Positions 17,321 to 43,146 of a stretch of 64,000 nucleotides of DNA are shown here, one piece after another. Origin of the DNA: an uncultured Methylomirabilota bacterium. GTDB taxonomy: Bacteria; Methylomirabilota; Methylomirabilia; Methylomirabilales; 2-02-FULL-66-22. The DNA lies in NCBI GenBank assembly GCA_963705305.1, contig OY970067.1:1856001-1920000 (forward strand), written 5' to 3'. Within the stretch, counting starts at the first letter, position 1. Each line of letters opens with the position of its first letter. The translations under genes were made by a program, and so were the position numbers. Under the pieces are notes generated by a model that was not told the DNA's origin, searched no databases, and was given only the letters and a program-made list of their open reading frames with translations.

Positions 17321-17503
17321 TGGGGACACTGCATTCTTATTAACTGGCAGGGCTCCTCGACCATGCTTCGAAACGCGGGGCTGGCGCACCCCGGGCGGCC
17401 CCTCGCCGTGATCCGCGAAGCGGCCCGCCGGGGGGCCGCGCATGCCCGGAAGTGGGGCCGCCTCCTCGGAGGCTAAGCGAGGCGAAGTAAATTGGAGCGT
17501 CCC
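17321..17503. repeat. GGGAC...GTCCC-bounded miniature element
   Basis: Inverted ends GGGACACTGCA / TGGAGCGTCCC; interior similar to 37640-37766. Confidence 0.7.
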
Positions 17504-17665
17504 GTATTCCATTGACGTGGGACGATTTCACGATCGATTACATCAAACCGCATAGCAAGGGCGGTCGAAGTCAACTAGAGAACGCGTTTTTAGTGTGCCG
17601 AGAGCGCAACTCCAAGAAAGGAAATTGGCGAAAGAAAAGGACTTCGAATTGATGGAGGGTGTCAC

Positions 17666-20212
17666 GTGTCTCCGGGAGATAAGCATTACGAGAACGAAGT
17701 GCGGGAGGCCATCGAGCGACTACTTTCGACCGGCATCAAAGAATTCACCGAGATTCTCAAAGCCCTCGGCGGAGCCGATCCGAAGCTCGTTCGTCAACTG
17801 CTGGACGAGATTGGGAATCGTCCGATCCTTGAACCTGTTTCATCCATCGATTCGTTTCGAGCCCGACGCCTCACCGCCGCGTTACCGTTGAAACTGCCAG
17901 CCCCCAATCCGATGGTCAGCCAGTGGTGGTTCACACTGGATACGGTATCCTTTCTGTCGAAAGATGTTTGGGAATTCGCCGGACATCAGCCTGCAGCATT
18001 TCTCGGCGCACCATCAGTTGCCTTCCATTACGCGCACTGCTACAACACACCTACAACCGTCCTCGACATCGACCCGGATGTTCTTCGCGCATTGGAACTT
18101 CCCGCTTCCGGAACGAAGCAAATATACGACGCGTCCTGCCCGATCCCGGAGGGTTTAGGGGGGAAACATTCGGTCGTCCTTGTGGATCCTCCCTGGTACA
18201 ACAGGGAGGTCCAACTCTTTATTGCGCGGGCACGGGAACTCCTTTTTCCCCAAGGATTTATCCTTTGCGTGTTGCCTTCTCGCCTAACCAGGGCGGGAGT
18301 TGTGGCTGATCGTAGTGAACTGCTCGCTCGACTTCTTGCCGCTCATTTCGAAATCGCGGCGTTGGACTCAGATTGCGTTGACTCTACTGTGCCAGAATTT
18401 GAATCCTGCGCATACTCCTCCATTCCGGGCTTTACTGGCAAGTCCTGGCGCCGGGGTGATCTGCTAGTACTCCGAGTGTCCGCAGAGTCTACCCTCACGG
18501 CAGGCCCAGTGTCTCCGTTCAGGATCGAGATCTTCTCCAGGGTTCCAGGGCGTCGTCGCTATTTCCTTGCGCCTGATCGGGTGACCGCCAAGATGCCGTC
18601 GTTTGTGGAGCAGGTGGCATCTTTTGAAACCACAGTCAGCATGCGAACGCCATCAATTGAGGCTGTCGCCGTCTGGGGCTCCAACAAGAAGGGTGTTCAG
18701 GTCCGTGACGCTGGGCTTGCGCGGCGCATTCTAGAACTCTGGCAATCAGGTAAGTCGATCAAAGAAGCCCTCAGCACCCTGGAGTCATCAGGGCCCCTCG
18801 ACCGAGAGGTCGAGGTCTTTGCGGGCGCGCTCGGCCTGTGGAGTGACGACGAGCAATCAACGAGGCGGCGTGGACCAGACGAGTTGGAGGCCCAAAGACA
18901 CAATACTCTTTCAGACGTAGCCGCGCATCCTACCGCACGGCAACACGAGTATGAGTCCGACGGGTTTCGCATATCCTTTCAGAGAGACAGGGACCGGATA
19001 TTGTGGTCGCATTCCCTGAGGCGATTGGCAAACAAGACCCAGCTGTTTCCAGTCAGGAGCGACGACCATCTTCGACGCCGGCTTGCGCACACAATCGAGG
19101 TTATGCAACTTGCGACAACCATCGCTGCCGCGTTCGGGCTCGACCATCAATTGACTGAAGCTGGCGCACTGGCTCACGATCTCGGGCACGCACCGTTTGG
19201 GCATGCTGGGGAGCACGCCATTGATGCCGTGCTGAATGAGATAAACCCGCATCTGAACGGATTCAACCACTACGAGCATGGGGTGGACGTGGTCCGGTGG
19301 CTTGAGGACGTTTATCAATCTCCTGGAGCTGGCGGCTTCCCAGGTCTCAATCTGACTTTCGAAGTGATTGAGTGTATTTTCAAACATACCTACTTTCGAG
19401 GGGACGAGAAGTTGGGCCAGCGCTGGCTTTCCACGAGAACAAAGCATGAAGACCTTGCGAATGACTTATCCTGTCATATGGAGGGCCAGGCGGTACGAAT
19501 TGCCGACAAAGTGTCGTATTTCATTTCTGACCTTGAGGACGGCATACGTAACGGCATCATTGATCTTCCGGCTTTGATGGAATGCAAGTTCTTTCATCGG
19601 CCGCCAATTGACCTGATACCGAGCCATCACGAGTCGCTGTACGAACGCTTCATTTCACAGAGAAGGGCTGTTTTAAAGGTCATAATGGAGGATATCCTGA
19701 CAGCCACAGACAGGAGGATCGCGAGGTTCAAGAGCCTCAGTGATCTGCGGTCCGACAATTCGTATGTCGTGGTGTACTCAGACGGCCTGGCAGAAGACAT
19801 ATCGGAGGTATGGCGGAATTTACAGGTTGGCATCTTGCATAGGGATGCGGGCGTGGTCGCGGCGAATAATCGCGCGGCGAAGGTTGTGAGTGATCTCCTC
19901 CTTGTGTATGCCGTTGCGCCGCATCTTGTTGAGGAGCGGTTCAGAAGGATGCATGCACGTTTGCAGGATTCCGACTACATGAAATGGTACGTTGCACAGA
20001 TCGGTCCACACGTAGCACTATCTAAGCGCCGCGTGAGCACGATTGCGTATGAATATGCGATCGGCGGGCAACTGCAGTCTCAGAGCGAGAATTGGCTAAT
20101 CCCGACGAAGGACCTTATCCAGGCGAAGGATTACGTGGCGAGTCTGACAGACACGCGAGCGCTATCTGAACATCGCACTCATTGCGGAACCCTCTGGGAG
20201 TCCGGGGACTAG
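17666..20212 (+). CDS. Fusion of a methyltransferase-like domain and an HD-family dGTP triphosphohydrolase
   Basis: N-terminal FLGAPS, VLDID and LVDPPWY; C-terminal FQRDRDRI, NKTQLF, RLAHTIEV, AHDLGHAPFGHAGE, DLEDG and DYVASLTD. Confidence 0.85.
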   Translation: MSPGDKHYENEVREAIERLLSTGIKEFTEILKALGGADPKLVRQLLDEIGNRPILEPVSSIDSFRARRLTAALPLKLPAPNPMVSQWWFTLDTVSFLSKDVWEFAGHQPAAFLGAPSVAFHYAHCYNTPTTVLDIDPDVLRALELPASGTKQIYDASCPIPEGLGGKHSVVLVDPPWYNREVQLFIARARELLFPQGFILCVLPSRLTRAGVVADRSELLARLLAAHFEIAALDSDCVDSTVPEFESCAYSSIPGFTGKSWRRGDLLVLRVSAESTLTAGPVSPFRIEIFSRVPGRRRYFLAPDRVTAKMPSFVEQVASFETTVSMRTPSIEAVAVWGSNKKGVQVRDAGLARRILELWQSGKSIKEALSTLESSGPLDREVEVFAGALGLWSDDEQSTRRRGPDELEAQRHNTLSDVAAHPTARQHEYESDGFRISFQRDRDRILWSHSLRRLANKTQLFPVRSDDHLRRRLAHTIEVMQLATTIAAAFGLDHQLTEAGALAHDLGHAPFGHAGEHAIDAVLNEINPHLNGFNHYEHGVDVVRWLEDVYQSPGAGGFPGLNLTFEVIECIFKHTYFRGDEKLGQRWLSTRTKHEDLANDLSCHMEGQAVRIADKVSYFISDLEDGIRNGIIDLPALMECKFFHRPPIDLIPSHHESLYERFISQRRAVLKVIMEDILTATDRRIARFKSLSDLRSDNSYVVVYSDGLAEDISEVWRNLQVGILHRDAGVVAANNRAAKVVSDLLLVYAVAPHLVEERFRRMHARLQDSDYMKWYVAQIGPHVALSKRRVSTIAYEYAIGGQLQSQSENWLIPTKDLIQAKDYVASLTDTRALSEHRTHCGTLWESGD

Positions 20213-20270
20213 GAATCAGGTACCGGATAGTATGCCGGGAATACCATGGGACTAAAAAAGGTACCGGACG

Positions 20271-22269
20271 GTATGCCGTGGATACTCTGGAACTCGCCGG
20301 TGGAAGTCCGGCCCCGGGAGCGGGCAGCGCGCCCGGGTAGCTCGAGGGAGGTGCGAGGGGTAACCCAAGGCATCGAGTTCCCTGACGAGCGCGTCCGACG
20401 GACGTGCGCAACCTCGCAGGCCGTAGCGTGCAGCGAACCCAGGGGTAGCCTCGTTAACTTCAGTGAGGGCGTCGACTCCGTTGTCCGGGGAGGAAGACCG
20501 GTGCTTGGGTGACCACCGCGGCTGTCGGGTCATCTGAGGCCCTCCGGGGTAGCAGGGATGGCATGCGGGGACAGCTTCAGAGGGCACCACGGGAGAGCCT
20601 GGCCAGTGGCCCACAGGAGGCCAACCGGGGCGTATAAGGCACCGCCGAAGTCGCCGCCGGGCTGCCCAGGCAGTCGGAGCGGCCCACAGTACCGCCAGCA
20701 CCCGACGGACAACACAACCGTTGGGGAGGGAAGGGGCCGTGCTCTCACCACGCTTCCCACGGCGGGACGCGAGGAGGATTGCTGTGAGGCTTGAACCTCC
20801 AGAAGCAGTGCGCACCCTCCAGCGGAAGCTTTACTGCAAGGCCAAGTCGGAGCCCACCTTCCGGTTCTACCTCCTCTACGACAAGGTCTATCGGGCGGAC
20901 CTCCTGGGTCACGCCTGGGCCTTGGTGCGCGCGAACGGGGGCGCCGCCGGTGTGGATGGCGTCACCATCGCCGCCGTCGAGGCGGACGGGGTCGGTCCGT
21001 TCCTCGCGCGTCTGGCCGAGGAACTCCGGACGCACACCTACCGAACCGATCCCATCCGGCGTGTAATGATCCCCAAGCGGAAGGGCGGGGAGCGGCCCCT
21101 CGGCATCCCCACCGTGCGGGACCGAGTAGTCCAAGCGGCCACCGTCTTGGTCCTGGAGCCGATCTTCGAGGCGGACTTCCAGCCGTGCTCCTACGGCTTC
21201 CGGCCGAAGAAGGACGCGCACCAGGCCCTGGCGGAGATCTCCCGCACGCTCGCGCAGGGCTACACGCAGGTGCTCGACGCCGACCTCACGGCCTACTTCG
21301 ACTCGATTCCGCACGGCCAACTCCTGGCGGCGGTGGCGCGCCGCGTGACGGACCGGGCCATCCTCCGGCTCTGCACGCAGTGGCTTCGCGCCCCGGTGGT
21401 GGTCGAGCGGGACGACGGGAAGCGGGAGACGCGAGGCGGCAAGCGGACTCGCCGCGGGACGCCACAGGGTGGGGTGATCTCCCCGCTGCTCGCGAACGTG
21501 TACCTCCACGCCTTCGATAGGGCGTGGCGAGCGGGCGGGCTGGAGCGTCGCTGGCAGGCCCGGCTCATCCGGTACGCCGATGACTTCGTGGTGTGCTGTC
21601 GGGCGAAGGCGGCCCAGGTGCAGGCGGTCGTGGCGGAGCAGCTCCAGGCGCTCGGGCTGACGCTGAATCCGGCGAAGACCCGATGCCTGGATGCGCACCA
21701 GCAGGCCTTCACCTTCCTCGGGTTCACGGTGCGGCTCGTGCGGAGCCCACGGACAGGGCGCCTGTTTCCTCTGATCCGTCCCTCCGCCGCTGCCCGCCAG
21801 CAGCTCCGGGACCGGGTAAAGGCCCTCACCGGCCGCGACCACCTGGCGCTGCCGACCCCGACGCTCATCACGGCGGTCAATCAGGTCGTCCGCGGATGGG
21901 CGGGGTACTTCCATTTCCAACACTGCACGCGCGACTTCAGCGCTCTACGGTGGTTCATCGAGGAACGGGTCCGGACGTACCTGCGGCGCAAGCACCGCCA
22001 TCGGACGCGAGCGTACCAGGCGCTCCCGTGCACTGTGCTCTACGGGCGTCTGGGGCTCTACCGGTTGCCCGTGCGGGCGCCCTGGACCCCTCCGACGCAT
22101 GCCGGGCGGTGAAGGTGACCGGAGAGCCGGATGCGGGCAAACCGCACGTCCGGTTCGATGAGGGGGCGCTGGGGCTCGAGCAGGGTCGGGCTCGTGAGGC
22201 ACCGCCAGACGAAAGGGGCGGGAACAGCTAGGCGCGACCTACCCTCGAATAGCCAGTGCTCTACTCTAC
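20271..22269 (+). mobile_element. Full-length group II intron (class F-like, tentative)
   Basis: 5' GTATGCCG; RT ORF; DV GAGCCGGATGCG..CGCACGTCCGGTTC; long DVI ending CTCTAC; joined flanks rebuild the uninterrupted repeat seen at 22794-22830. Confidence 0.9.
20784..22112 (+). CDS. ltrA: Group II intron reverse transcriptase/maturase, no endonuclease domain
   Basis: GVDG, RPLGIPTVRDR, SYGFRP, GTPQGGVISPLLANVYL, RYADD, GWAGYF; RBS GAGGAGG. Confidence 0.95.
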   Translation: MRLEPPEAVRTLQRKLYCKAKSEPTFRFYLLYDKVYRADLLGHAWALVRANGGAAGVDGVTIAAVEADGVGPFLARLAEELRTHTYRTDPIRRVMIPKRKGGERPLGIPTVRDRVVQAATVLVLEPIFEADFQPCSYGFRPKKDAHQALAEISRTLAQGYTQVLDADLTAYFDSIPHGQLLAAVARRVTDRAILRLCTQWLRAPVVVERDDGKRETRGGKRTRRGTPQGGVISPLLANVYLHAFDRAWRAGGLERRWQARLIRYADDFVVCCRAKAAQVQAVVAEQLQALGLTLNPAKTRCLDAHQQAFTFLGFTVRLVRSPRTGRLFPLIRPSAAARQQLRDRVKALTGRDHLALPTPTLITAVNQVVRGWAGYFHFQHCTRDFSALRWFIEERVRTYLRRKHRHRTRAYQALPCTVLYGRLGLYRLPVRAPWTPPTHAGR

Positions 22270-23162
22270 CCCTTTGGTCGCTAACTGCTTGAATTCCTTG
22301 AGAGGCGGTTTCGATTCTTGGCAGATTGTGGGTCTGGCGAGGACGGTGAAGAGGGATCGGACAGCATGCCGTGGATACGCTGGAACTCGCCGGTGGAAGT
22401 CCGGCCTCGGGAGTGGGCGTGCTCCCCGCGCCGCCCAGTTCCTGGGGGACGTTGTTGACTCAGTGGACTTGCCGACTGAGCGGAGGCGCCGAAAACTGCT
22501 GTCGGCCGTGCTTCGCATAATCAGGTGAGGGCTATCCCAAGCTCCTGAAGGCTCCCGATGACGCGCAGGCAGTTCTCGACGAGCTGGAACGCCTCACGGT
22601 GGTGGCACTGGCCGGGGAGGGGCGCTGTCTCCTGGGGCACCCGGGCAATAATTCCAGGGGACGTTGTTGACTCAGTGGACTTGCCCATCGAGGAAAAAGA
22701 TACCGACGCGATGCCAGTTCCTTGGACCTGGCGTCTCAGGGACGCTGGTCATGAGGCGCGGAGAGAGCCAGGCAGGTACGAATGTGGGTCTGTAAAAAGG
22801 GTACTGGACACTTTTGGGTCGCTAATTGCTTGAATTCCTTGAGGAGCGGCTTCAATTCTTGACCAAGGATGTGTTTGGCGAGGACGTTGAAAAGGGTGCC
22901 GGACAGCGTGCCGCAATTACGGGACGATGCTGCTTTACTTGTATTACGGTCTAATTTCCCAGGCCGGCGCCTCGGGCCGCGCCGCCCGGGCGGGGATCGC
23001 CTATATCTGAGTGGAGCGCCTCGGTCATCCCTGGCGGCCCCTCGCCGCGGTCTTGGGGATCTGCCGCGCCATGGCCTACCTGGGGGTGCGGGGCGGTGCA
23101 GAGGTTGGAGCGGAATCGCCCCCCGTGTCGCCAGGGCAAGGCGACGTAGATTGCAATGTCCC
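22270..23162 (+). repeat. Cluster of composite repeats: target-repeat units, intron 5' stubs and GGGGAC modules
   Basis: 22270-22363 resembles 22811-22905; intron stubs at 22364 and 22906; identical GGGGACGTTGTTGACTCAGTGGACTTGCC at 22445 and 22657; GGGAC..GTCCC element at 22921-23162. Confidence 0.85.
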
Positions 23163-23261
23163 GCACTTCATCCGGAGAATGCCGGAGATACAGAACCCGC
23201 GGTCCAGAGGAGAAGGCTCGCCTGAGCTCGCAAGATAAGGCTGCAGGTGTGAGGGAGTGAA

Positions 23262-24221
23262 ATGGCCAAAATCTTTGGTGGCAGGTGGAAGGTCAGGGAG
23301 GACTTAGAGACCGGCGGACAAGCGCATGTATATATCGTCCAGGATTCACGTGGAGAGGGGAGCGATCTGTACGTCCTAAAAAGATTGAAGAACCATAATC
23401 GGCTCAGCCGATTTGAGAAAGAAGTAAAAGCCGGAATGAAGCTCAAGCATCCCGGAATTGCGCCGATCGTGGCTTACTCGCTTTCCGAGCCATCGTACTA
23501 CGTCACGAATTACTATCGAGGCGGAACACTGACGAAAAGAGTTGAGGCTGGCGTGATGGCATCGCTTGATGCGCTTGTCCTTTTCGTTGAATTGTGCCAG
23601 ATCGTCCACTATGCACACTCGCAGGGGATCTTTCATCGAGACTTGAAGCCGGACAACATCGTTTTCGACGAAGATGATAACCCTATTATTATAGACTTTG
23701 GTCTGTGCTATTTCACGGATGAGGATAACCGACTGACGGAAACAATGGAGCAGGTAGGGTCCCGATTCTACATGGCTCCGGAAATGGAGAGGGGACGGTT
23801 GACAGAGGTGACTTCGGCGGTCGACTCATACTCACTCGGGAAGGTGCTTTATTTCATGCTAACCGGAAGGCACATTGCCAGAGAGGCATTCGCAGATCTT
23901 TCCGCCATCACTAGTGCTGCTCAATTGGAGTATGTGTCGGAGAGGATCCTAGCGCAGACCATAGTCGAAGATCCCGCCCGAAGACTTACGCCCGAGAAAT
24001 TAATCCCCATTGTTGAGACTGTATACAGGCTGATCGCAGAGCACTTCTATCCCGGCATTCAAGGTTCTTTATGCAGGTATTGCGGTGAAGGGACATATGG
24101 GCAAGGGATTGAGACGGTAATGCGCTTGCACGAGCCCGGGGTTGAACACTCGGTGACGTTCGATGCTTACATCTGTGGAAGATGCGGAAATGTCCAGTGG
24201 TTCCGACGGCAGAGGGGGTAG
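23262..24221 (+). CDS. Hanks-type Ser/Thr kinase with C-terminal zinc ribbon
   Basis: VLKRL, HRDLKPDN, DFG, YMAPE; CRYC...CGRC. Confidence 0.9.
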   Translation: MAKIFGGRWKVREDLETGGQAHVYIVQDSRGEGSDLYVLKRLKNHNRLSRFEKEVKAGMKLKHPGIAPIVAYSLSEPSYYVTNYYRGGTLTKRVEAGVMASLDALVLFVELCQIVHYAHSQGIFHRDLKPDNIVFDEDDNPIIIDFGLCYFTDEDNRLTETMEQVGSRFYMAPEMERGRLTEVTSAVDSYSLGKVLYFMLTGRHIAREAFADLSAITSAAQLEYVSERILAQTIVEDPARRLTPEKLIPIVETVYRLIAEHFYPGIQGSLCRYCGEGTYGQGIETVMRLHEPGVEHSVTFDAYICGRCGNVQWFRRQRG

Positions 24222-24250
24222 GGAGGAACGGAGTAATGCTGTGAATGGAA

Positions 24251-24404
24251 CTGGACAGTATGCCGTGGATACTCTGGAACTCGCCGGTGGAAGTCCGGCC
24301 CCGGGAGCGGACTTCGTCGTGAGCCCAGCCGAATAGCAACGCGCGGTGGGCCATCCGGCCTTCATGGCATCCTATGCCGCCCGACGGCGGGTTCGGCGAA
24401 GAAT
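24251..24404 (+). repeat. Target repeat + 55-nt intron 5' stub + shared tail
   Basis: CTGGACA|GTATGCCGTGGATACTCTGGAAC...; tail shared with 26032-26192. Confidence 0.85.
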
Positions 24405-24477
24405 GGGAGCCATACCCTCTTTAAATCACGAGGCTACGCCATATATGGTGCGCGTACCTTTTTTGCGGGAGCTAATC

Positions 24478-25977
24478 ATGCTTAATGAACAACAACGCCA
24501 GCGGGCATTGACGGCACTGCATCAATACCAAGAAGCGCGGAACCTTGTGCAAGAGGATGAGACGCTGGACCAACAACGCATGGCGCTGATCGAGAGCGAT
24601 TTAAGGCCGTTAGTTCAGTCCTACCTTGGAGGTGCCACCGAACTGTCTGAATTCAAATCGAGAATTGACAGCCTAAACAAGCTTAATCCTTTTTGGGGCT
24701 TCAAGGGTATCAAGGGCCAAATGTTCTTTAACATGGTGGTGAACGTAGCCGATAACCCGAAAGAATGCGATCAGGAAATCAAGTCTGCGGTTGCCCTGCC
24801 CACTAACGAGCAGATTGCCTCCAGTCGCATAAAAACCTTTGCCAGCTACGTGCAGCGACTTGGCGAGCAATGGGTGAGTGCTGGCAATACCCGATATGGT
24901 TGCCCGAAGCTCGGCAGTATCCCCTTTTTCCTCTCCTACTTCTGGCAGATCCAGAATCGCGACACCTGGCCCGTGTACTACACTAATACAAACGCATTTT
25001 TTATTGATGATACACGCTCCGGCTTAGCGTTCGTATCTGCGGCCTTCCACGCGGAGCGGGAAAGGCCCCTGACAGGCAATGGGCCGGGGCCACGTAACAG
25101 GAATTCATGCGTTTGTATTAGCAGTATCAATGCCATGGTAGACCTGAACCTTTGGCAACCCTCTGGTGAAATGGCCGAGGACTACTTGGCGTACAAGCGA
25201 CTGCATGAAGATTTGGGCCGGCTATTTGCCTCGGAGACCGGCCGTGGCTTTCAGCTCTACGATGTCGAGCACGTTTTCTGGTTCAAAGCCGGTAATCCGT
25301 ACGGGGCTGCACGGGCCGAAGAAGGGCGCGCTGCCAGCCACGACCTTGGAGCGCAGGCAAGCACAGGCGCGACCGATGACTCGAGTCGACTTCCTGAAAG
25401 CTATGTTCCGTCAATCGTGGCCATTCTTCCGCGCATCGCGCGGCATGAAGCTGGTCTTGAAGACCTCGCCAGGCAATCGGGCACAACCCTGGAGCGTGCG
25501 TTCGAGAAGTATATCGATGCGGCGTTGACCATGCTTGGCTATGAGACGAAGTTGCTGGGGCAGGGTCAAGGGCGCGTTCCGGACGGAGTAGCCGTGGCCT
25601 TGGACGACAGCTATGCGATTCTGTGGGACGGCAAGATTCGCCGCGGCGGGTACAGCATGGGGACGGATGATCGCACGATCCGCGAGTACATCTCGACTCA
25701 AAGCCGGGAACTGAAGCGGCGACGCTCGCTCAGGAATATCTACTATGTTGTCATCTCGAGCACATTTGTCGATGATTTCGACGAGTCTATTAGGTCTATT
25801 AAGATGGAAACCGACGTAAACGAGGTTGTATTGGTCGAAGCGGATGCCTTGGTTGCCATGGTCGATGCGAAACTGCGATCGCCTCTTCAAATATCTCTTG
25901 GCCCTGACGGCCTGTAGCGGCTATTCAGTTCAAGTGGAATTGTCAGCGCAAGTACCGTTATTGAGCAGTTGGTCTAG
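24478..25977 (+). pseudogene. Restriction endonuclease-like gene (FokI-type PD-DxK C-terminal domain) with an in-frame MITE and a premature TAG at 25915
   Basis: VPDGVA...ILWDGK...GYSMGTDDRTIREYI; the frame continues 19 codons past the TAG. Confidence 0.65.
24986..25118. mobile_element. 133-bp IS630/Tc1-type MITE
   Basis: TIR ATACAAACGCAT / ATGCGTTTGTAT flanked by a TA duplication. Confidence 0.85.
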
Positions 25978-26031
25978 GCCGATCTAGGTCGTAAATCGCG
26001 CGGGGGGGGCGAAAGCAGGAGAGGTGCGCAA

Positions 26032-26192: not shown

Positions 26193-26226
26193 TGAAACCT
26201 TGCCCTCGTCAAGTCACGAGGTGACG

Positions 26227-33383: not shown

Positions 33384-33410
33384 GTTGTCTATCGATCTGG
33401 TTGAGATCCG

Positions 33411-34256: not shown

Positions 34257-34677
34257 GTCGATGATAACTGGTCCGGCGGGCGTGAGAGGGGACCCGGCCG
34301 TTTTCGCGGCGTCAAGGTGGATCCCTCCTGTCGATGCGGATTGGTGACCGCGGAAATGGATTAGGTGACGTTGCTGCAGTATTCGCATTACGGTCCAACC
34401 TCCAGCCCGGCGCCTCGGGCCGCGCGGACCGGCCGATTGGGACCGACTGGTTTGCGTAATGGATTGCCGTGCCAGCCCTGCCAATGTCCCCGATCTCCCT
34501 GTGCCGCCCGCGGTCCCTGTCGGGGAATTGACGCCTCTTGCCCCGTTCTCTAGGCTCCTGTGATCGGGACGTTCCGTACAATCATAAAATTCCCTGAAAA
34601 GAAGGGCTGCCGAACGAGGGGGGATTCCTATCGAAGCGCTGCGGCCTCGATAGGCGCCCTCTTTACGCGGTCGAAAA

Positions 34678-34697
34678 ATTAGTGTATATACACTAAT
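34678..34697. promoter_or_regulatory. Probable BrnA operator
   Basis: Perfect 20-bp palindrome ATTAGTGTATATACACTAAT abutting the brnT ATG. Confidence 0.7.
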
Positions 34698-34979
34698 ATG
34701 TTTTCCTGGGATGTCAGGAAGGCGCAGGCGAACTCTGACAAACACGGCGTGGCATTCGACGAGGCGGCGGCCGTCTTTGCTGATCCGGCGGGCCTCGACT
34801 GGGACGATCCGGCGCACTCGCACGGGGAGAGCCGGCACAGGCGCCTCGGCAGGTCGGGAGCCGGCCGAATCCTGCTGGTCGTGTATACGGTGAGGAGGAA
34901 GCCCCATGATCAAGAAACGATCCGCGTCACCAGCGCGCGCCAAGCCTCGCGCAAAGAGCGCACGGCATATGCCGGATAG
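34698..34979 (+). CDS. brnT: BrnT-family toxin
   Basis: FSWDVRKAQANSDKHGVAFDEA...IRVTSARQA. Confidence 0.9.
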   Translation: MFSWDVRKAQANSDKHGVAFDEAAAVFADPAGLDWDDPAHSHGESRHRRLGRSGAGRILLVVYTVRRKPHDQETIRVTSARQASRKERTAYAG

Positions 34980-35199
34980 CCGCATCGACTTCAGCGACAT
35001 TCCGGAGTTGACGGACGCGGAGCTGCGGCGTGCGCGCCGGGTGGGACGGCCGGCGACCGGCCGGGCGAAGCAGCTCATTGCCATCCGCCTCGATCCCCGC
35101 CTCCTGGCCAAACTCCGCCGGTTGGCAGCGCGGCAGGGGAAGCCCTACCAGACGCTCGTGCACGAGCTGCTGGAAGCCGCAGCCGCACGGGCCGCATAG
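34906..35199 (+). CDS. brnA: BrnA-family antitoxin (start may be 34969)
   Basis: IDFSDIPEL...GRP...IAIRLD...PYQTL. Confidence 0.88.
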   Translation: MIKKRSASPARAKPRAKSARHMPDSRIDFSDIPELTDAELRRARRVGRPATGRAKQLIAIRLDPRLLAKLRRLAARQGKPYQTLVHELLEAAAARAA

Positions 35200-35238
35200 C
35201 ACTGGGAAAAATTCTCGGGGTGAAAAAGGGTCCGGACG

Positions 35239-35436
35239 GTATGCCGTGGATACTCTAGCACTCGCCGGTGGAAGTCCGGCCCCGGGAGCGGGCAGCGCGC
35301 CCGGGTAGCTTGAGGGAGGTGTGAGGGGTAACCTGAAACACCGAGTTCCCTGACGAGCGCTCACCGAGGTGAGCGCGCAACCCCGTCCGCCGACGGCGGA
35401 TAGCGTGCAGCGAACCAGGCGGAGCCCCAGTAGCCT
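35239..35436 (+). mobile_element. ~200-nt 5' fragment of a related group II intron, inserted in the target repeat
   Basis: AAAAAGGGTCCGGACG|GTATGCCG..., colinear with 20271-20451. Confidence 0.85.
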
Positions 35437-35528
35437 GGATCCGGCGTGGTCAAGATGCCTCAAAGCGGCGGCGAGTAGCATGCATTCCTTGCGCGAGAAC
35501 CCCCAACAGGGCATTCCGGGAGGGTGGC

Positions 35529-37007
35529 ATGAGGACGGAGATGGATGACAGACAACACCGCGTGATCCTGCAGAGAATTGCCCATCGGGCGATGCGGGAA
35601 CGAGGACTTGTTCCCGATTTCCCGCCCCAGGCGCTCGCCGAGCTCGACGGAATCCACGGGCCGGCGACGCGAGCTGACAGATCGACGCGCGATCTCCGGA
35701 ACCTGCCCTGGTGCTCCATCGACAACGATGATTCGCGGGATCTGGACCAGCTGACCGTTGCCGAAGCCCTGCCCGACGGGGCCGCCAAGGTCCTGGTCGC
35801 CATTGCCGATGTGGACGCGCTCGTCCCGAAGCGGTCGGCGCTTGACGAGCATGCGCGGCAGAACACCACCTCGGTCTACACGGTTGCCGAGACGTTTCCG
35901 ATGCTGCCCGAGAAGCTCTCCACGGATCTTACCTCGCTCAACCCCGAATCCGACCGCCTGGCCATCGTCGTTGAAATGGTTCTCGCCGGGGACGGATCGC
36001 TGCAGCGGTCGGACCTGTATCGAGCGACGGTGCGGAATCGGGCCAAGCTGGCCTACAACAGCGTGGCCGACTGGCTGGAGGGGAACGGGCCGATGCCCCG
36101 AGGGATCGGCACGGTCAGCGGTCTGGAGGAAACCCTGCGACTCCAGGACCGCGTGGCGCAGAAGCTGAAGGCGCTCCGGCACCTGCACGGGGCGCTCACT
36201 CTCGAAACCGTCGAAGTCCGTCCGGTCTTTGAGGGCGATGAGCTCAAGGACTTGGAAGCCGACGAAAAGAACCGGGCCAAGGCCATTATTGAGGACTTCA
36301 TGATCGCCGCCAACGGCGTTACCGCACGATACCTCGCGGCAAAGCAGTGTCCGTCGCTGCGGCGCGTGGTCCGCGTCCCCAAACGCTGGGACCGGATCGT
36401 CGAGCTTGCCGCCGAGCGGGGCACAACACTGCCCACGGAACCCGACGCACAGGCCCTGGAGCAGTTCCTGGTCACGGCGAGAGCCGCTGACCCTCTCCGC
36501 TTTCCCGATCTCTCTCTCAGCGTCGTGAAACTGCTGGGTCCGGGTGAATACGTCGTCCAACTTCCGGGAGGCAATGTCGCCGGGCACTTCGGTCTTGCGG
36601 TCAAGGACTATGCGCACTCCACCGCCCCGAACCGCCGATTCCCCGACCTGATTACACAACGCCTGCTGAAAGCATCGGAGGCGGGACACTCCGGGCCCTA
36701 CGAGAACGACGAGTTGGCCACGCTCGCCAAGCACTGCACCGAAGCGGAAGACGCAGCGAAAAAAGTTGAACGGCAGGTCACAAAATCCGCCGCCGCGATG
36801 CTGCTGCAAGCAAGGATCGGGGAGCAATTCGATGCCGTCGTCACCGGCGCATCGGACAAAGGGACGTGGGTCCGCCTGCTGCGTCCGCCCATTGAAGGAA
36901 GGCTGGAGAGCGGGTTTGAAGGCGTGGACGTCGGCCACACGCTGCGTGTACAACTGGTCCGCACGGATGTAGAGCGCGGATATATCGACTTCAAGAGACT
37001 GGCGTAA
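35529..37007 (+). CDS. RNB-domain (RNase II/R family) ribonuclease
   Basis: SIDNDDSRDLDQ, IEDFMIAAN, HFGL...YAHSTAPNRRFPDL, S1-like tail. Confidence 0.9.
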   Translation: MRTEMDDRQHRVILQRIAHRAMRERGLVPDFPPQALAELDGIHGPATRADRSTRDLRNLPWCSIDNDDSRDLDQLTVAEALPDGAAKVLVAIADVDALVPKRSALDEHARQNTTSVYTVAETFPMLPEKLSTDLTSLNPESDRLAIVVEMVLAGDGSLQRSDLYRATVRNRAKLAYNSVADWLEGNGPMPRGIGTVSGLEETLRLQDRVAQKLKALRHLHGALTLETVEVRPVFEGDELKDLEADEKNRAKAIIEDFMIAANGVTARYLAAKQCPSLRRVVRVPKRWDRIVELAAERGTTLPTEPDAQALEQFLVTARAADPLRFPDLSLSVVKLLGPGEYVVQLPGGNVAGHFGLAVKDYAHSTAPNRRFPDLITQRLLKASEAGHSGPYENDELATLAKHCTEAEDAAKKVERQVTKSAAAMLLQARIGEQFDAVVTGASDKGTWVRLLRPPIEGRLESGFEGVDVGHTLRVQLVRTDVERGYIDFKRLA

Positions 37008-37069
37008 GGAGAGACAGATTACCGGATGGCAAGGCGGCGCCTCCCCGCCCTCGCGTAGGGGGGACATAA

Positions 37070-37140
37070 GAAAGGTACCGGCCAGCATGCCGTGGATACG
37101 CTGGAACCCGCCGGTGGAAGTCCGGCATCCGGAGCGGGCA
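37070..37140 (+). repeat. Target repeat + intron 5' stub
   Basis: AAAGGTACCGGCCA|GCATGCCGTGGATACGCTGGAAC... Confidence 0.85.
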
Positions 37141-37197
37141 GGAGCAGGGCCCTCGCGCAAACGGAGGGGTTGGCCTGCGGAGGAGTGAAAGAATCCC

Positions 37198-37494
37198 ATG
37201 TTCCTGGCGATGACCATTCTGTGCGGGATCTTCCTGGGGTGGGCGGCGGGCCGGGAGGGCGTGCTCGCCATGGCGGTCCCGGCCGTGGCGGTGGCAGCGG
37301 TGCTGACCCTCGCCGGGTATCTGTGGTTCCTGCTCAAGACCTGGCGCCTGACGCTGCGCCGCGCCTCGGCCCACGGCCGCCGGGCGTTCCAGCGGGAGGT
37401 GGGAACGACGCTGGCCTGGTCGTTGATCTTCCGCCTCGTGGTCATGGCGGCGGCGGGCTCCCTAGCCTACTGGATTTCCGTTCTCATCCATTGA
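37198..37494 (+). CDS. Small membrane protein
   Basis: RBS GGAGGAG; three hydrophobic segments. Confidence 0.55.
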   Translation: MFLAMTILCGIFLGWAAGREGVLAMAVPAVAVAAVLTLAGYLWFLLKTWRLTLRRASAHGRRAFQREVGTTLAWSLIFRLVVMAAAGSLAYWISVLIH

Positions 37495-37506
37495 GAGAGA
37501 AAAGTA

Positions 37507-37766
37507 GGGGACGTTGCTGCTTTATTTGCATTACGTTCTGATCTCCCAAGCCGGCGCCACGGGCCGCGCCGACCGTAATTGAAGACGCCGCAAATCTCGC
37601 CAACTGGTGGGAGGATTCCTCGACGATCCCTTGCCACGCAGGGCTGGCGTCCCCCGGGCGGCCCCGCGCCCTGGCCCACCAAGCGGCCCGCCGGGGGGCG
37701 GCGCAGGCCCGGGGGTGGGTCCGCCTCCTGGGAGGCGAAGCAAGGCAACGCAAATTGCAGCGTCCC
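37507..37766. repeat. GGGAC...GTCCC-bounded miniature element
   Basis: Ends GGGGACGTTGC / GCAGCGTCCC; left part resembles 22921 and 34363, right part resembles 17370-17503. Confidence 0.75.
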
Positions 37767-37772
37767 GCATTT

Positions 37773-37895
37773 CGTGGTAAAGAGGACATCATCCACCTTC
37801 CGCCCGAGCAGCTTGTGGACGGCATCCTCCAGAAAGAGCAGCGCATCGGGGAGATCATGGGAGAGATCAAGCAGCTCCTGGAGAAGGAATTGTGA
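37773..37895 (+). pseudogene. C-terminal relic of a second hsdM
   Basis: RGKEDIIHLPPEQLVDGILQKEQRIGEIMGEIKQLL*; GTGA-coupled to the next gene. Confidence 0.55.
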
Positions 37896-38911
37896 AGCGC
37901 AGAGTCAAGCCCCGGGGTGTGGCGGAGCCCATTGCCGCGTACGGATCGGACCGCGGCGAGGTCGCGCTCTACCGGGCGCCCGATGGGACCGTGACCCTGG
38001 ATGTCCGGTTGGAGCGCGAGACCATCTGGCTGAACTTGAACCAGATGGCCGACCTGTTCGGGCGGGATAAATCCGTTATCTCCCGCCATTTGCGAAAGGT
38101 CTTTGGTGACGGGGAGTTAGAGCGGGATTCAGTTGTTGTTTTTTTTGCAACAACTGCCTCCGACGGAAAGACCTACCAAGTTGAATATTTCAACCTGGAT
38201 GCCGTCATCTCTGTAGGCTACCGGGTGAATTCAAAGCGAGGGACCCAGTTCCGGGTCTGGGCGACTGGCGTCCTGCGCGACCACCTCCTCAAAGGATATA
38301 CGGTCAATGCTCGACGGCTGAAGGAGTTGAACCAGGCCATCCGGCTGATCGCCGACGTGGCCGAGCGGCGGGAGCTGAAAGGGGACGAGGCGACCGCCCT
38401 TCTGCGTGTGGTGGCCGACTACAGCTACGCGCTCGACCTGCTGGACGACTACGACAATCAGCGGGTTGCGGTGGCCGGGACCACCCGGGCCGACGCTGTC
38501 GCAGTGACGTATGACGAAGCGCGGGATGCCATCGAGCGACTCCGAGGGAAGTTCAAGGCCTCCGACCTCTTCGGCCGGGAGAAAGACAACAGCCTGCGCG
38601 GCTCCCTCCAGTCGGTGATGCAGACGGCAGACGGGAAGGACGTTTACCCGAGCATCGAGGAGAAGGCGGCCCACCTGCTGTACTTCCTGGTCAAGAACCA
38701 TCCCTTCGTGGATGGCAACAAGCGCATCGCCGCCGCCCTGTTCCTCTGGTTCCTACAAAAGAATTGCGCACTCTACCGCCCTGACGGCACCAAGCGTATC
38801 GCCGACAACGCCCTCGTGGCCATGACCCTGCTCATCGCCGAGAGCAGCCCCGCGGAGAAGTCCGTGCTCGTCAGCGTCATCGTCAACCTCATCAACAAGC
38901 GGAACCCATGA
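37892..38911 (+). CDS. RhuM/Fic/DOC family protein
   Basis: FNLDAVISVGYRVNSKRGTQFR and HPFVDGNKR. Confidence 0.92.
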   Translation: MKRRVKPRGVAEPIAAYGSDRGEVALYRAPDGTVTLDVRLERETIWLNLNQMADLFGRDKSVISRHLRKVFGDGELERDSVVVFFATTASDGKTYQVEYFNLDAVISVGYRVNSKRGTQFRVWATGVLRDHLLKGYTVNARRLKELNQAIRLIADVAERRELKGDEATALLRVVADYSYALDLLDDYDNQRVAVAGTTRADAVAVTYDEARDAIERLRGKFKASDLFGREKDNSLRGSLQSVMQTADGKDVYPSIEEKAAHLLYFLVKNHPFVDGNKRIAAALFLWFLQKNCALYRPDGTKRIADNALVAMTLLIAESSPAEKSVLVSVIVNLINKRNP

Positions 38912-39069
38912 ACAGCCCGCGGCGAGAGAATAGGGGACCCGTAAGGGGGGACGTCCATAAAATCATAAGATTCTCTCACCCGTTTCTGTCGAGGAGCGAA
39001 GGGGGATCGCAGTCTTGCGAATGAGATTCCAGGGGAACTATGGCTTCTTCCACCGCAGCAGCGCGGCCG

Positions 39070-39216
39070 GTAATCCATGTAGAGTTGGACTTGATTCACC
39101 CTTTCCGCGAAGGGAATGGGCGGATGGCACGAATGTTGGCCGTCCTCATGGGCTTGCAGGCCGGCTTGCCGGCGCTCGTTTTTGACAAGCTGGCATCGCG
39201 GAATCGGCAGCGATAA
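39070..39216 (+). pseudogene. Fic-domain fragment
   Basis: VIHVELDLIHPFREGNGRMARML, no start codon. Confidence 0.7.
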
Positions 39217-39588
39217 TTTGCGGCGGCGCGGGCCGGGCGCACGCGAGGGTCCGCAGGGGGCGAACAACCGGGGCGTTGCTGTTGACAAGCGTCCTCGAGC
39301 TTTGGTAAAGAGCGCGTGGCGGTACCTTGGGGTCCTCCCCCAGCGCCGGCCTTGAAAGGTGCGTCGAGATGCCCGATCAGGGTCCGGACAGCGTTCTACA
39401 TCCCCCGGGCCTCCGCGATGACCGTCGGGGGCGTGTGTTTTTGGGGGCTGACACAATGCCCACCGCAGAGAGGGGATAAGGGTTCGGACGGAGGACAGGC
39501 GCCAGGGGAGTGGAGCGTCTTCTCCCCTTCCCGGCCGCCCGCGTGCATCCCGCCGGCGGGGCCTGCGTCCTCGGAAGGAGGGAACGCC

Positions 39589-40731
39589 ATGCGACGAAGG
39601 CTGGGGGGCCTCGGGTTCCTGGCGGTGGTGGTGCTGCTGCTCGGGTCGGCGGCGTGGGCGGGGGAGACCACGCCGGGCGAGATTCGGATCGGCATGAGCG
39701 CCCCGCTCACGGGCGGCTGGGCCGCGGAAGCGGATCTGTACGTCAAGGCCATCCACCTCGCGGAGCAGCAGATCAACGCGGCGGGCGGCGTCAACGGGAA
39801 GAAGCTCCGGGTCATCATCACGGACAACCAGTCCACCAACCCCGGCGCCCTCGCGGCGTTGAATCGGAACGTAGAGCAGGATCACGTGCTCGCCATGATC
39901 GGGCCGGTGAAGAGCACCCAGATCCTGGCCATGTCCGACGCGGTAAAGGCCTACGGCATCCCCATGATGGTCGGCGGCACCAACGCCTCCATCACCAAGG
40001 TAGGCAACCCCTGGTTCTTCCGCTGCCGCGTCAGCGACGCGATCATGGCTGCGGCGGCGGTCAAGTTCCTCAAGGAGGACCTGCGGCTCACGAAGATCGG
40101 CCTCCTCTACTCGAACGAGGCCTTCGGGATGGGGGGCGCCGATCTGGTGGAGGCGGATGCCAAAGCCCAGGGGCTCACGATCGTAGGGCGCGCGTCGTTC
40201 ACCCTGGGCGATCGGGACTTCACCGGCCAGCTCCTCGCCCTGAAAGGGGCGGGCGCCGAGGCGGTCGTCCCCTACAGCGCCGGGACCGTCGAGCTGGCCA
40301 AGATCCACACGCAGTACCGGCAGCTGGGCTCCCCGTACACGTACGTGGGCATCGCCGGCTTCGCCATGAAACACGTGCTGGGGCTGGCCCGCGACGCGTC
40401 CGAAGGGCTGGAGGGCATCGTGGAGGTGCTGCCGAACCAGAGCGAGCAGAACCGGAAGTACATCGAGGACTTCAGGCGGGCATTCAACACCGAGCCGGAT
40501 ATGCTCGCCACCTGGAACTACGACGCCCTGCAGCTGCTCGCCAAGGCCATCCGGGAGGTGGGGGAAGATCGGGCGAAGATCCGGGAGGCCATCCTGGCCA
40601 CCAAGGGGTACCCGGGGGTGATCGGGACCTTCAATTTCTCGCCGGACGGCGAGGGGCTCCGCGCCGCCTTTGCCGCCGTCATCCAGAACGGGGAGGCCAA
40701 GCTGATCAAGCCGATCCCCGTGGCCCCATAG
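39589..40731 (+). CDS. LivJ-type ABC substrate-binding protein (orphan)
   Basis: Signal peptide; IRIGMSAPLTG, INAAGGVNGKKL. Confidence 0.9.
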   Translation: MRRRLGGLGFLAVVVLLLGSAAWAGETTPGEIRIGMSAPLTGGWAAEADLYVKAIHLAEQQINAAGGVNGKKLRVIITDNQSTNPGALAALNRNVEQDHVLAMIGPVKSTQILAMSDAVKAYGIPMMVGGTNASITKVGNPWFFRCRVSDAIMAAAAVKFLKEDLRLTKIGLLYSNEAFGMGGADLVEADAKAQGLTIVGRASFTLGDRDFTGQLLALKGAGAEAVVPYSAGTVELAKIHTQYRQLGSPYTYVGIAGFAMKHVLGLARDASEGLEGIVEVLPNQSEQNRKYIEDFRRAFNTEPDMLATWNYDALQLLAKAIREVGEDRAKIREAILATKGYPGVIGTFNFSPDGEGLRAAFAAVIQNGEAKLIKPIPVAP

Positions 40732-40978
40732 AGCGCCGAGGAACCCCGCGAGCCCGGATCGGGAAGGGCCGTCGACCCCAAAGGCCCAGCGGTTCCCGTC
40801 AGGAGAAGGTGCTCGGCAAGGGGGCCCAGGCGTTTCTGCGGTGTCAAGGCGGACCATTCCTGTCGAGGCGGATTGGTGACCGTGGGAATAGTGTCCGGTA
40901 TCTTTCTTTCATGCAACCCCACCAGAGGCGAGGAGGCTCAACTCCCAACCCTAATTTGGACAAGAGCGGAAGGAAAAC

Positions 40979-41335: not shown

Positions 41336-41655
41336 GACCCCTCGCCGACGCTCACCCCGCTGCGGCTCCAGGGGCTGGCGTTAGGAGCCGGTTTGAATTA
41401 AGATTAGTGAATGATTGCCTCGGACTGGATTCTTCAGGGCAGCAGGAAGAGTACGGGTTACGCGGGGAGGAGAAGGGTTCTCTTGCCAAGCAGGCAAGGG
41501 GGAAAAGGGCATCCGCGAGGACAACCCGCCAAACTCCGGGAATTCCGGTAGGCCTCTATGATTACCTTGGACTTGAGTCCGTGGAGTAGGGGGAAGTCCT
41601 TTTTCCCGTGGGTCTGAAACGCCGCCAATCGATCCTGGGCTGAAAGGAGTCTCCG

Positions 41656-42694
41656 ATGAAAATGAAGGCCTTGATCAAGGAAACACCGCAGACGGGCGCC
41701 GTCCTCAGGGAAGTCGAGGTCCCCGGCATCCGGGACACCGAGGTCCTGGTGAAGGTGAAGCGAGCGGCCATTTGCGGGACGGATATCCACATTTATTTCT
41801 GGACCGCCTACGCTCAGCAGCGCCTGAAGCTCCCCATGATCTTTGGGCATGAGTTCTGTGGCGAGGTCGTCGAGGTGGGGAAGAACACCAAGCGCCTGAA
41901 GAAGGGCGACCTCGTGGCTGTGGAAACCCACATCCCCTGCGAGGTCTGCTTTCAGTGCAACACCGGACTGATGCACGTCTGCCGGGACATGAAGATCATC
42001 GGCGTGCACACGACCGGCACCTTCAGCGAGTATGCCGCCATCCCGGAGATATGCGCCTGGAAGCTCTCGCCCGCCACGTCCCCCGATATTGGCGCGGTCT
42101 ATGAACCCTTTGGAATCGGCGTCCACTCCTTGACCCGGCACAAGGTCGCGGGAAAGCGGGTCCTGATCACCGGGGCCGGCCCCATTGGCCTGTTCGCCCT
42201 CGCGGTGGCCAGGATGAGCGGCGCCATGAAGATCTTCTCGTCGGAACGTCAGCGAGGAACGGCTGGCGCTGGCCCGCCGGATGGGCGCGGACGTCGTCCT
42301 GAACCCCCAAAAGGTTGACGTGGTCAAGGAAATCATGAAGGCCACTGGAGAGTTCGGGGTGGACATCTTCGTGGAGCTTTCGGGCAACGGCGAAGCCTGC
42401 CAGACGGGCCTCAAAGCCCTGCGCCGAGGCGGCTCCGTGTCCCTGGTCGGGCTCTTCAACAATACCGTGGAACTCGATCTCGTGAATGACGTGATTTACA
42501 AGGAGGCGACGGTATACGGGATCACCGGCCGGACCATGTTCTCGACCTGGACCGAGGCGGCGGACATCCTCGACTCGGGCAACATCGACATCTCGCCCGT
42601 GCTCACCCATCATTTCCCCATGGAGGAGTTCGAAAAGGCCTTTGAAACGGCCCGCTCGGGCAAGTGCGGCAAGATCCTCTTTGACATCGGCTGA
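41656..42694 (+). CDS. tdh: L-threonine 3-dehydrogenase-like Zn dehydrogenase (+1 frameshift at ~42245)
   Basis: ICGTDIH, GHEFCG, ETHIPC, GAGPIG, GITGR, GKCGKIL. Confidence 0.78.
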
Positions 42695-43146
42695 GATACA
42701 AGCCGACCTGGCGGCCACCGCCAAACAGGATCTCGAGGCTGGCGAGGCCACCGACGGAGAGCCCAGGCCCGTCAAAGGGACGTAGTAGATTTAAGAGACC
42801 TATTTTCTTGGGCGCTGCTCGAAGACGTGGGTTGTGCCTCGTTGGCGTCGAGTACATGCCGATGCGAGGCCGCACGACTTCCTCGTGCGGTGGGGGCGAA
42901 AATCCATGAGGACGTGGCAGCATTAATTACATTGTTTGATGCTGGGCCGCGCCGCGCCTCCACCGCATGGCCGGCGGAAATCTCCCTCTCCGCCCGGGGG
43001 CGGGGACCGGTGGAGTCTCGGCGTTCGGAGAACAAGCTCCCGCTCGATGCCGGATGCGGCGAAGCCGGGAGTCCCCCCGGCCCGGCGGCGACTTGCGCCC
43101 GATCGAGGGGTCCGATCGATCACCCGATGTCGCTCCGTGGCGTGGG

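Follow-up and report, generated by a model that had tools for sequence, protein, structure and literature searches.

Several described systems resemble in part the gene array that we analyse here, which lies in a stretch of 64,000 nucleotides (hereafter, the window) from an uncultured Methylomirabilota bacterium, at positions 1,856,001-1,920,000 of a single 5.65-Mb contig (OY970067.1) with a genome GC content of 66%. Integrons carry co-oriented, mostly single and unrelated genes that are parted by a short recurring element, and group II introns are associated with them; Leon and Roy, in 2009, reportedly proposed that group IIC-attC introns act in cassette formation. Endonuclease-less group II introns (RmInt1) reverse-splice into the lagging-strand template and use the nascent lagging strand for priming, according to passages of PMC6698660, and the decay of RmInt1-type introns is portrayed in portions of PMC4496777 and PMC4181065 as a loss of the 3' terminus after which 5' fragments remain; part of the latter account concerns an intron 5' fragment (FRE652; fragments of 487-652 nt) that persists beside a gene. 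TIRtrons and REPtrons, in the sections of Di Nocera et al. (2013, PMC3733652) that define them, are units of Y1 transposases (TIRYTs and RAYTs) with flanking inverted repeats. A preliminary description of the window had seen in its co-oriented genes, each followed by one of two types of non-attC repeat, a cassette-like platform for gene capture that was possibly driven by an HUH (RAYT/Y1) enzyme. We conclude instead that the array very probably arose as known selfish elements gathered in a defence island and decayed there, neither a dedicated cassette recombinase nor a dedicated mechanism of capture taking part. Coordinates below are those of the window unless a genome position is named, and features lie on the + strand unless stated otherwise.

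The first of the two repeat types (type 1) consists of a 5' exon target and the first ~53-180 nt of an endonuclease-less group II intron, of which an intact copy is present at 20271-22269. Rfam models for intron domains D1-D4 (RF02003, 20294-20431) and D5-D6 (RF00029, 22122-22269) matched this copy with 76.8 and 45.5 bits, against gathering scores of 49 and 40, respectively. The open reading frame (ORF) of its intron-encoded protein, located in domain IV (20721-22112), matched Pfam RVT_1 (E 5e-36) and GIIM (E 3.3e-15) as well as TIGR04416 (373 bits against a cut-off of 300); the best solved relative of the protein is the GsI-IIC reverse transcriptase (E 9e-55), and no HNH or other endonuclease domain was detected in it. 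The intron begins with GUAUG, unlike the usual group II consensus, GUGYG. Over 2018 nt (20254-22271) the window shows 100% identity with a second copy, at genome 4098819-4100836, from which it follows that the intron was mobile recently; the two identical copies at separate loci also suggest, indirectly, that the intact intron may be able to splice and to retrohome.

The borders of the intron were placed by comparison with its relatives. Matches to the diverged introns of genus relatives begin at query position 18-20, which corresponds to window position 20271, and the exon-binding site 1 (EBS1; GUUGUCCGG, at 20480-20488) pairs with the 7-8 nt immediately 5' of that position, CCGGACR, as the intron-binding site 1 (IBS1). 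This pairing covaries in both of the diverged relatives that were aligned, as GUGAGCGGA with UCCGCUC in G019 and as GUUGACCGG with CCGGUA in G010. Because of the match starts and the covariation, we place the intron at 20271-22269 and take the conserved 12-17 nt that precede every copy to be exon target. On the aligned sequences, then, the intron RNA is shown to be matched to a target ending in CCGGACR, which it would recognise through EBS1-IBS1 pairing. The 5' exon of the intact intron (20254-20270), a homing-site half with the IBS1 CCGGACG, falls within the 2018-nt identical stretch, and the 3' exon (22270-22348) is the rest of a homing-site element that we term type 3 (22273-22371 is 80% identical to 22814-22913).

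The target motif is the left end of this type-3 element, units of which measure ~146-190 nt and have inverted ends (for example, genome 4487524-4487669). Uninterrupted homing-site copies number 10 in the genome, 5 of which lie in the window (22798, 47684 and 53880, and, on the minus strand, 27774 and 40904); in side-by-side comparison at 22798 and 47684, the target motif continues directly into what is the 3' exon sequence of the intron, and the segment 22795-22884 matches 47681-47770, the second uninterrupted site. With up to 3 mismatches allowed, the 14-mer target pattern was found 24 times in the window against 4.33 +/- 2.08 times in shuffled sequences. We treat the element as MITE-like (after miniature inverted-repeat transposable elements), enriched here, and as non-coding, since, in two translations, its copies resemble each other less at the protein level than at the DNA level. 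Its reading as a gene was discarded: a minus-strand reading looks protein-like, yet the copy at 47580-47897 is without a Pfam match.

Type-1 copies number 8 in the 5.65-Mb genome by blastn-short, and a search with a 39-nt pattern recovered the identical 8. As many as 7 of them lie in the window, between 20263 and 37141 and all on the + strand, where repeat detection likewise returned one family of 7 co-oriented copies; 6 of these 7 are stubs that lack the 3' part, with end points taken from local alignment to the intact intron. Stub s1 (22349-22418) comprises the target and intron ~1-55, its alignment ending at about +55, and is followed by an 83-nt MITE-like insertion of terminal inverted repeat (TIR) type with GTGCT direct repeats and then by a leader, B' (22502-22648). 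Stub s2 (24244-24338) holds intron 1-53, identical to the intact intron at 53/53 positions, then a repetitive extragenic palindrome (REP)-like sequence at +55 (pattern match 24310-24338) and a leader, A, that extends to 24440. In s3 (26030-26226), which is identical to the intact intron at 48/52 positions and ends at +55, the same palindrome (26099-26127) is followed by a leader, A', that is cut by an insertion sequence (IS). Stub s4 with its leader B (29042-29259) ends at about +55, and the next 10 nt resemble the start of the palindrome. Stub s5 (35219-35426) reaches from intron position 1 to about 180-188 and derives from a diverged intron lineage (83% identity to the intact intron over 205 nt; RF02003 at 35262-35415, 60.2 bits), and s6 (37061-37141), which ends at +57, lies exactly between two blocks that are common to the window and to the relative G006. 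Shorter remnants of 8-30 nt, recognised by eye and given lower weight, lie at 20218, 22690, 22893, 29838 and 46260; the first of these, s0 (20218-20246; pattern match 20217-20230), reads as the target followed by ~16 nt of the intron 5' end.

The REP-like palindrome, of 27 nt and with TGAGCTCA at its centre, sits exactly at intron position +55 in s2, s3 and 2 stubs of relatives (L010a of G006 and L019 of G007). It occurs as dispersed copies in 13 of 21 genus genomes, the counts reaching 15 in G007 and 12 in G016, and in the present genome it is confined to the two intron stubs of the window. A '22-nt insertion' in s2 and s3 was therefore rejected as an intron variant, being an independent palindrome, and '1-135' intron fragments of G004 and G014 were rejected as truncations, as they sit at contig ends and represent assembly breaks. 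Among the relatives' loci, L021 (G013:C34, at about locus position 4690) has intron 1-134 fused directly to the 3' exon of a homing site. At the junction, 4 nt of the 5' exon occur a second time, as though microhomology or a template switch had acted at an internal CGGAC resembling IBS1. At loci L010, L011 and L018 (G006, G013), stubs often precede a short element with heptamer repeats of the TTGCGGA type.

The uniform orientation and the 5' nature of the stubs are what the described biology of such introns leads one to expect. Cumulative GC skew is lowest at 1.28 Mb and highest at 4.14 Mb. This puts the origin at ~1.28 Mb and the terminus at ~4.14 Mb, so that both intron loci have the + strand as their leading strand. 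The parental + strand is then the lagging-strand template, and for this reason stubs on the + strand throughout are expected, the genes being co-directional. As published decay proceeds by 3' loss, 5' stubs are the normal remnant, and that the inserts fall within tens of bases of stop codons follows from the shortness of the intergenic gaps. We propose that the endonuclease-less intron would retrohome to the CCGGACR target at the left end of the MITE-like element and, to judge from RmInt1-type biology, would enter the lagging-strand template (the + strand), so that its copies come to be co-oriented with the genes. Most copies would then lose their 3' part, a step shown by one copy that has an IS-associated deletion (s3) and presumed for the rest, and the loss would leave ~12-17 nt of target and the first 53-180 nt of intron. 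The ends of Y1/HUH transposons would pile up in the same intergenic gaps, and some modules of stub, leader and gene start may have been duplicated later, for which homologous or unequal recombination from one stub to another would be the simplest route.

These transposon ends are the repeats of the second type. Type-2 repeats are the TIRs of Y1/HUH (IS200/RAYT-like) units and of gutted derivatives of such units. Their 10-mer core is followed by ~25 AT-rich bases, of which there are many variants, and inverted pairs of the core at a distance of ~1.05 kb occur genome-wide. A unit of ~1.07 kb with inverted termini (genome 4482923-4483989) encodes a 327-aa protein that has the HUH and tyrosine motifs; 2 of the 4 units scanned gave a Pfam Y1_Tnp match (E 4.2e-8 and 2.2e-6), with a DnaA-C-like helix-turn-helix tail, and in the other 2 the chosen ORF was without a Pfam match, yet tblastn gave Y1 homology there. 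The NCBIfam model NF047646 (REP_Tyr_transpos) matched the protein with 63 bits, under the cut-off of 80, and we take the protein, on its sequence, to be a relative of that family and not an equivalog. Searched by tblastn, the Y1 protein gave 19 matches in the genome and 0 in the window, from which an intact Y1 transposase gene is accordingly absent. The expectation that Y1/RAYT genes flanked by the same motif would be found elsewhere in the genome was borne out by these ~1.07-kb units, with the motif in inverted orientation at their ends. Heptamer runs resembling the TTGCGGA type also follow some TIRs of the present genome.

What the window holds of Y1 units is their debris. A fragment resembling the 3' end of a Y1 unit (22983-23170) was matched by blastn to genome 6951-7143 and 5218060-5218250, the former of which overlaps a tblastn Y1 match at 7056-7955; a second such fragment (37608-37771) stands behind a TIR variant (37502-37575; the composite spans 37502-37771) and is 81% identical to a third, at 17345-17508. 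Because leftover 3' fragments of the transposase gene accompany them, we regard the solo TIRs as gutted transposons. At 29798-29949, repeat search and blastn revealed a TIR with a degenerate micro-stub (29798-29872) ahead of another TIR variant (29906-29949), and a TIR-like repeat after the tdh-like gene (42773-42818) forms an inverted repeat with 3295-3340. At 22655-22992 several kinds of debris are nested: a TIR (22655), an uninterrupted type-3 site (22790-22890), a micro-stub (22893-22912) and a TIR variant (22915-22992). We consider the identities of the type-1 and type-2 repeats to be secure.

With these identities in hand, the array can be set beside the described systems. It shares with integrons the co-oriented, mostly single and unrelated genes, the short recurring element between them and the association with a group II intron, and the preliminary description was right that the repeats are non-attC: type 1 is collinear with the 5' end of the intron and folds no better than shuffled sequence. 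In integrons each cassette is bounded by attC sites, which are imperfect palindromes with R''-L''/L'-R' cores. The repeats here, by contrast, are not imperfect palindromes, lack a stable fold and belong to other mobile elements; the intron stands in sense orientation, and no IntI or other tyrosine recombinase lies within 150 kb. A whole-genome search with PF00589 gave 26 matches and 0 in the window, the nearest being at genome 1,601,250 and 2,078,716, that is, more than ~150 kb away, and Phage_integrase was absent among the window ORFs scanned. The notion of a cassette-like capture platform thus gives way, as the repeats are ends or remnants of two known kinds of selfish element and no integrase is near. 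Nor could we uphold the statement that the window has no recombinase for its repeats, as the intron reverse transcriptase at 20721-22112 is the type-1 enzyme. The proposed HUH link held for type 2, which belongs to Y1 units, and failed for type 1, whose copies are what decay has left of the 5' end of a group II intron; and in place of two repeat families the region has at least 5. Enrichment of the repeats in the island was evident for type 1 (7 of 8 copies in the window) and, by length, for type 2 (8 core matches against 1.39 expected), but 115 of the 123 genome occurrences of the type-2 core lie outside the window.

The likeness to RmInt1-type introns is closer, extending to the ribozyme domains, the reverse transcriptase/maturase ORF, target recognition by EBS1-IBS1 pairing, insertion into another mobile element in intergenic DNA, and lagging-strand-template orientation. 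The remnants also agree with those of RmInt1 and FRE652, as far as these are covered in the passages cited above, in the missing 3' terminus and in 5' fragments that lie beside genes. They differ in that seven copies occur here within 17 kb with ends that recur near +55, and in length, the stubs being 53-180 nt long against the 487-652 nt given in the relevant part of PMC4181065. As in TIRtrons and REPtrons, an HUH/Y1 gene is flanked by inverted repeats of ~25-30 nt, intergenic DNA holds scattered solo and gutted copies, and the termini start with a GGGG motif that is close to the GGGGWSAS quoted in an excerpt of PMC3733652. Unlike them, there are many paralogous units in this genome (the 19 tblastn matches), each with its own TIR variant, and the protein falls below the REP_Tyr_transpos cut-off and carries the DnaA-C-like tail. 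With MITE-rich defence islands the region has in common low GC content, IS copies, pseudogenes, absence of synteny with relatives, and genes for restriction-modification (R-M), a dGTPase, a PD-T4-6-like kinase, RhuM-Fic and BrnTA; the density of intron stubs is the one unusual detail.

Several observations weigh against simple accumulation and decay, and they bear on an alternative in which the stubs (55-70 nt and 85-95% alike) act as portable homology through which RecA-type recombination excises, duplicates and re-inserts modules of stub and gene. The packing of 7 of the 8 type-1 copies of the genome into 17 kb is extreme; the relatives carry at most 2 stubs together, the stub pattern being present in 7 of 21 genus genomes, and a pair in G006, 3.6 kb apart, again follows co-oriented defence-type genes (NERD, stub, PIN). 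The stub ends are non-random: of 14 truncated stubs that were aligned, 10 (5 of 6 from the window and 5 of 8 from relatives) stop at +53 to +59, where a hairpin loop is predicted, and common ancestry of a palindrome-bearing lineage would cover four to six of these ten ends, not all. Two paralogous pairs of modules begin exactly at a stub and extend into the next leader: s1 and s4 share stub and 147-nt leader (82% identity, running into the start of a 204-aa ORF), s2 and s3 share stub, palindrome and ~100-nt leader (24250-24440 against 26039-26228, 80.6% over 191 nt), and the sequences upstream of the paired modules are unrelated. Their order is B-A-A-B, which a single block duplication cannot yield. 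Between the pairs, mismatches are fewer in stubs (15/136) than in leaders (56/276; Fisher p 0.019), a hint of gene conversion or constraint, and the full identity of s2 to the live intron, next to 48/52 for its paralog s3, suggests gene conversion. Finally, the G006 contig C51 is 91% identical over 35470-37053, which includes the RNB gene, and homology resumes at 37149 with a 98-aa gene; the two blocks are separated in G006 by 1648 unrelated bases and in the window by s6 with 7 bases on each side, so that the G006 breakpoints lie within 8 nt of both edges of the stub. The BrnTA block (34657-35201) and the Opp block (end at 34257) stop within 25 nt of a repeat, which carries little weight at 77-83% identity. 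The search for synteny breakpoints at the repeats, which the preliminary description had suggested, thus succeeded for G006 at s6, while the island as a whole lacks synteny in all 5 relatives searched. On the other side, no variant junctions were seen in metagenome contigs that cover 17500-37499 (4 of the 8 DNA runs that one run search listed from 2 studies, with no RNA data set among them), which are short, of low depth and of little power; two joints in one run (X1; 29825 to 34287 and 34337 to 20254) were rejected as rearrangements, as they match sequence upstream of intron copy 2 at 4.0987 Mb, the second intron locus. The duplicates are old (~80% identity), so that turnover would be slow at best, any dispersed direct repeat would serve as well, there is no sign of selection for such a function, and the relatives hold only single or paired stubs. 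We regard this shuffling as unlikely, and would give just as little credence to its fullest form, a recombinase-free 'poor man's integron' seeded by a retroelement, in which gene conversion from the live intron would refresh the stubs, single defence genes would be duplicated, excised as loops and put back one module at a time, and the +55 break would mark a hairpin that is cut again and again by single-strand-specific (HUH) enzymes or by replication slippage.

The remaining alternatives appear to us more doubtful by far. Capture and movement of single genes by a Y1/HUH (RAYT/TIRYT) enzyme acting in trans, with the repeats as its sites, could draw on the Y1 units that bear the same terminal motif in this genome, on the location of all 8 type-2 matches on the + strand within the island, and on the palindrome in the +55 hairpin loop of four stubs, which points to a single-strand-specific insertion process that targets stubs; yet the genes are without matched left and right ends, the solo TIRs are gutted transposons by their leftover 3' fragments, type-1 repeats are unrelated to Y1 elements, and behind none of the gene units did the intron sequence resume beyond the break, which speaks against plain insertion of the genes into an intron. 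We hold such capture to be highly improbable. No more credible is a retro-capture in which the intron reverse transcriptase would switch templates between cellular mRNAs and a broken 5' part of the reverse-spliced intron RNA and so write gene copies of transcript size behind stubs. The shared blocks are roughly transcript-sized (from -59 to +46 around the RNB ORF and from -41 to +2 around BrnTA), all units are co-oriented with the stub, and the L021 joint described above would fit a template switch, but gene-limited homology is to be expected anyway at 70-90% identity, the Opp block comprises three genes, poly-A-like or non-templated signatures were not seen at the junctions (no search aimed at them was made), and the literature explains 5' fragments without such a step. 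We likewise see scant prospect that stubs were retained for a role in cis on the downstream gene, as leader, insulator or RNA-stability element. The stub always lies upstream of the next ORF, at 36-103 nt, it is less diverged than the leaders, and a portion of PMC4181065 reports an intron 5' fragment that persists next to a gene; against this, matches to sigma-70-like promoters or intrinsic terminators are absent from all stubs, the folds of 6 of 6 stub RNAs are no stabler than those of shuffled sequences (z -0.44 to +2.2), and the first 55 nt are the most conserved part of the live introns, so that the similarity requires no new function. Accumulation and decay of known elements is therefore the explanation that we retain.

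Other repeats of the region add to the picture of a crowded island. An IS1380-family insertion sequence (26227-27746; NF033539, 268 bits against a cut-off of 180) with inverted ends of the CCCTAATCTCCGGCT type has 25 other full-length copies in the genome (~26 in total), 24 copies being at least 98% identical, and has clearly expanded recently. At least 13 of 16 other copies inspected show a duplication of ~5 nt, while the window copy, flanked by gacg and ttag, is without a target-site duplication, for which reason we consider that deletion or recombination at the edge of this element removed the sequence after s3. A type-3 homing-site end in reverse orientation (27761-27774, minus strand) follows as an exact pattern match. 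A small repeat, D13, is followed by a TIR variant at 34282-34435, its segment 34282-34337 matching genome 4098724-4098780, just upstream of intron copy 2; another repeat of the D13 type (40819-40904, to which no strand was assigned) terminates in a type-3 end that lies in reverse on the minus strand (40891-40904, 1 mismatch). A repeat of ~160 nt next to type I R-M genes of G010 (L029:11034-11223, G010:C47) has ~80 matches in the present genome at 70-97% identity and represents another abundant, MITE-like family.

As the preliminary description had stated, the cargo is co-oriented: in the interval from 17.6 to 42.7 kb, all ORFs that matched Pfam, PADLOC or NCBIfam lie on the + strand, and two long minus-strand ORFs (35460-37445 and 38773-40857) had no family match in the domain scan. 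PADLOC and Pfam also support its assignment of the cargo to defence, toxin-antitoxin and orphan-transporter genes. The array opens with an 848-aa methylase-HD/dGTPase fusion (17666-20212; Pfam HD and N6-adenineMlase, PADLOC dGTPase E 5e-53, NCBIfam dGTP_triPase 166 bits against a cut-off of 152) and continues with a PD-T4-6-like Ser/Thr kinase (23262-24221; Pfam Pkinase, PADLOC PD-T4-6 E 2.6e-42). The two ORFs that had been labelled nucleases fared less well: the 523-aa ORF (24346-25917) shows a weak FokI-like cleavage domain (Pfam FokI_cleav_dom, E 3.1e-5), at 23.9 bits under the cut-off of 25, and gave no match in PDB, PADLOC, NCBIfam or PHROG, and the 204-aa ORF downstream of s4 (29169-29783) gave nothing in Pfam, PADLOC, NCBIfam or PDB, its sole match being one PHROG of unknown function. 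Further along are a BrnT/BrnA toxin-antitoxin pair (34698-35199; BrnT_toxin E 9e-23, BrnA_antitoxin E 2.4e-9), an RNB-family exoribonuclease (35529-37007; Pfam RNB E 1.4e-80), a RhuM/Fic protein that is a candidate defence gene (37892-38911; Pfam, PADLOC PDC-S23 E 1.8e-132) and a tdh-like Zn-dehydrogenase gene (41656-42694). The last is a 97% copy of genome 1690497-1691774 and is split in two overlapping ORFs, with ADH_N and ADH_zinc_N in separate ORFs, probably by a frameshift. Additional co-oriented cargo includes two orphan Liv-type binding proteins, an Opp-like binding protein with two permeases, the 98-aa ORF and a cupin. Of the nine pairings of stop codon and repeat that had been put forward, eight stops (20212, 24221, 29033, 29783, 35199, 37007, 37494 and 42694) are as given and one is not, the 523-aa ORF ending at 25917 rather than 25977; a repeat does begin at or within a few bases of all nine repeat positions.

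The array has a type I R-M system and IS21 fragments as its upstream neighbours. The R subunit of that system (11741-13552, 603 aa) probably lacks its N-terminal part, the ResIII match covering just the profile end. Tandem ORF6N-domain genes (9461-9655 and 10203-10397) adjoin the IS21 fragments (7296-9117), and behind each gene of the pair stands a TIR in reverse orientation (9628 and 10370, minus strand). The GC content drops to 54-60% over 14-34 kb of the window, against 66% for the genome. In the 5 relatives searched, the island is without synteny and its pieces are scattered; in G010 the type I R-M genes run on into DNA that is ~157 kb distant in the present genome, and a clean empty-site comparison was obtained solely around RNB (5 relatives). 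The best explanation of these features is a horizontally acquired, low-GC island of defence, toxin-antitoxin and orphan-transporter genes on the leading strand.

The look of a gene-cassette array can thus come from ordinary processes, namely strand-biased homing into a MITE, loss of the intron 3' part and the pile-up of Y1 ends, and this counsels caution before such islands are named as new capture systems. The recurrent break near +55, together with the REP-like palindrome at that position, bears on how group II introns become inactivated. Recombination from stub to stub, if it does take place, would offer a simple route by which fragments of a dead retroelement could reshuffle defence genes.

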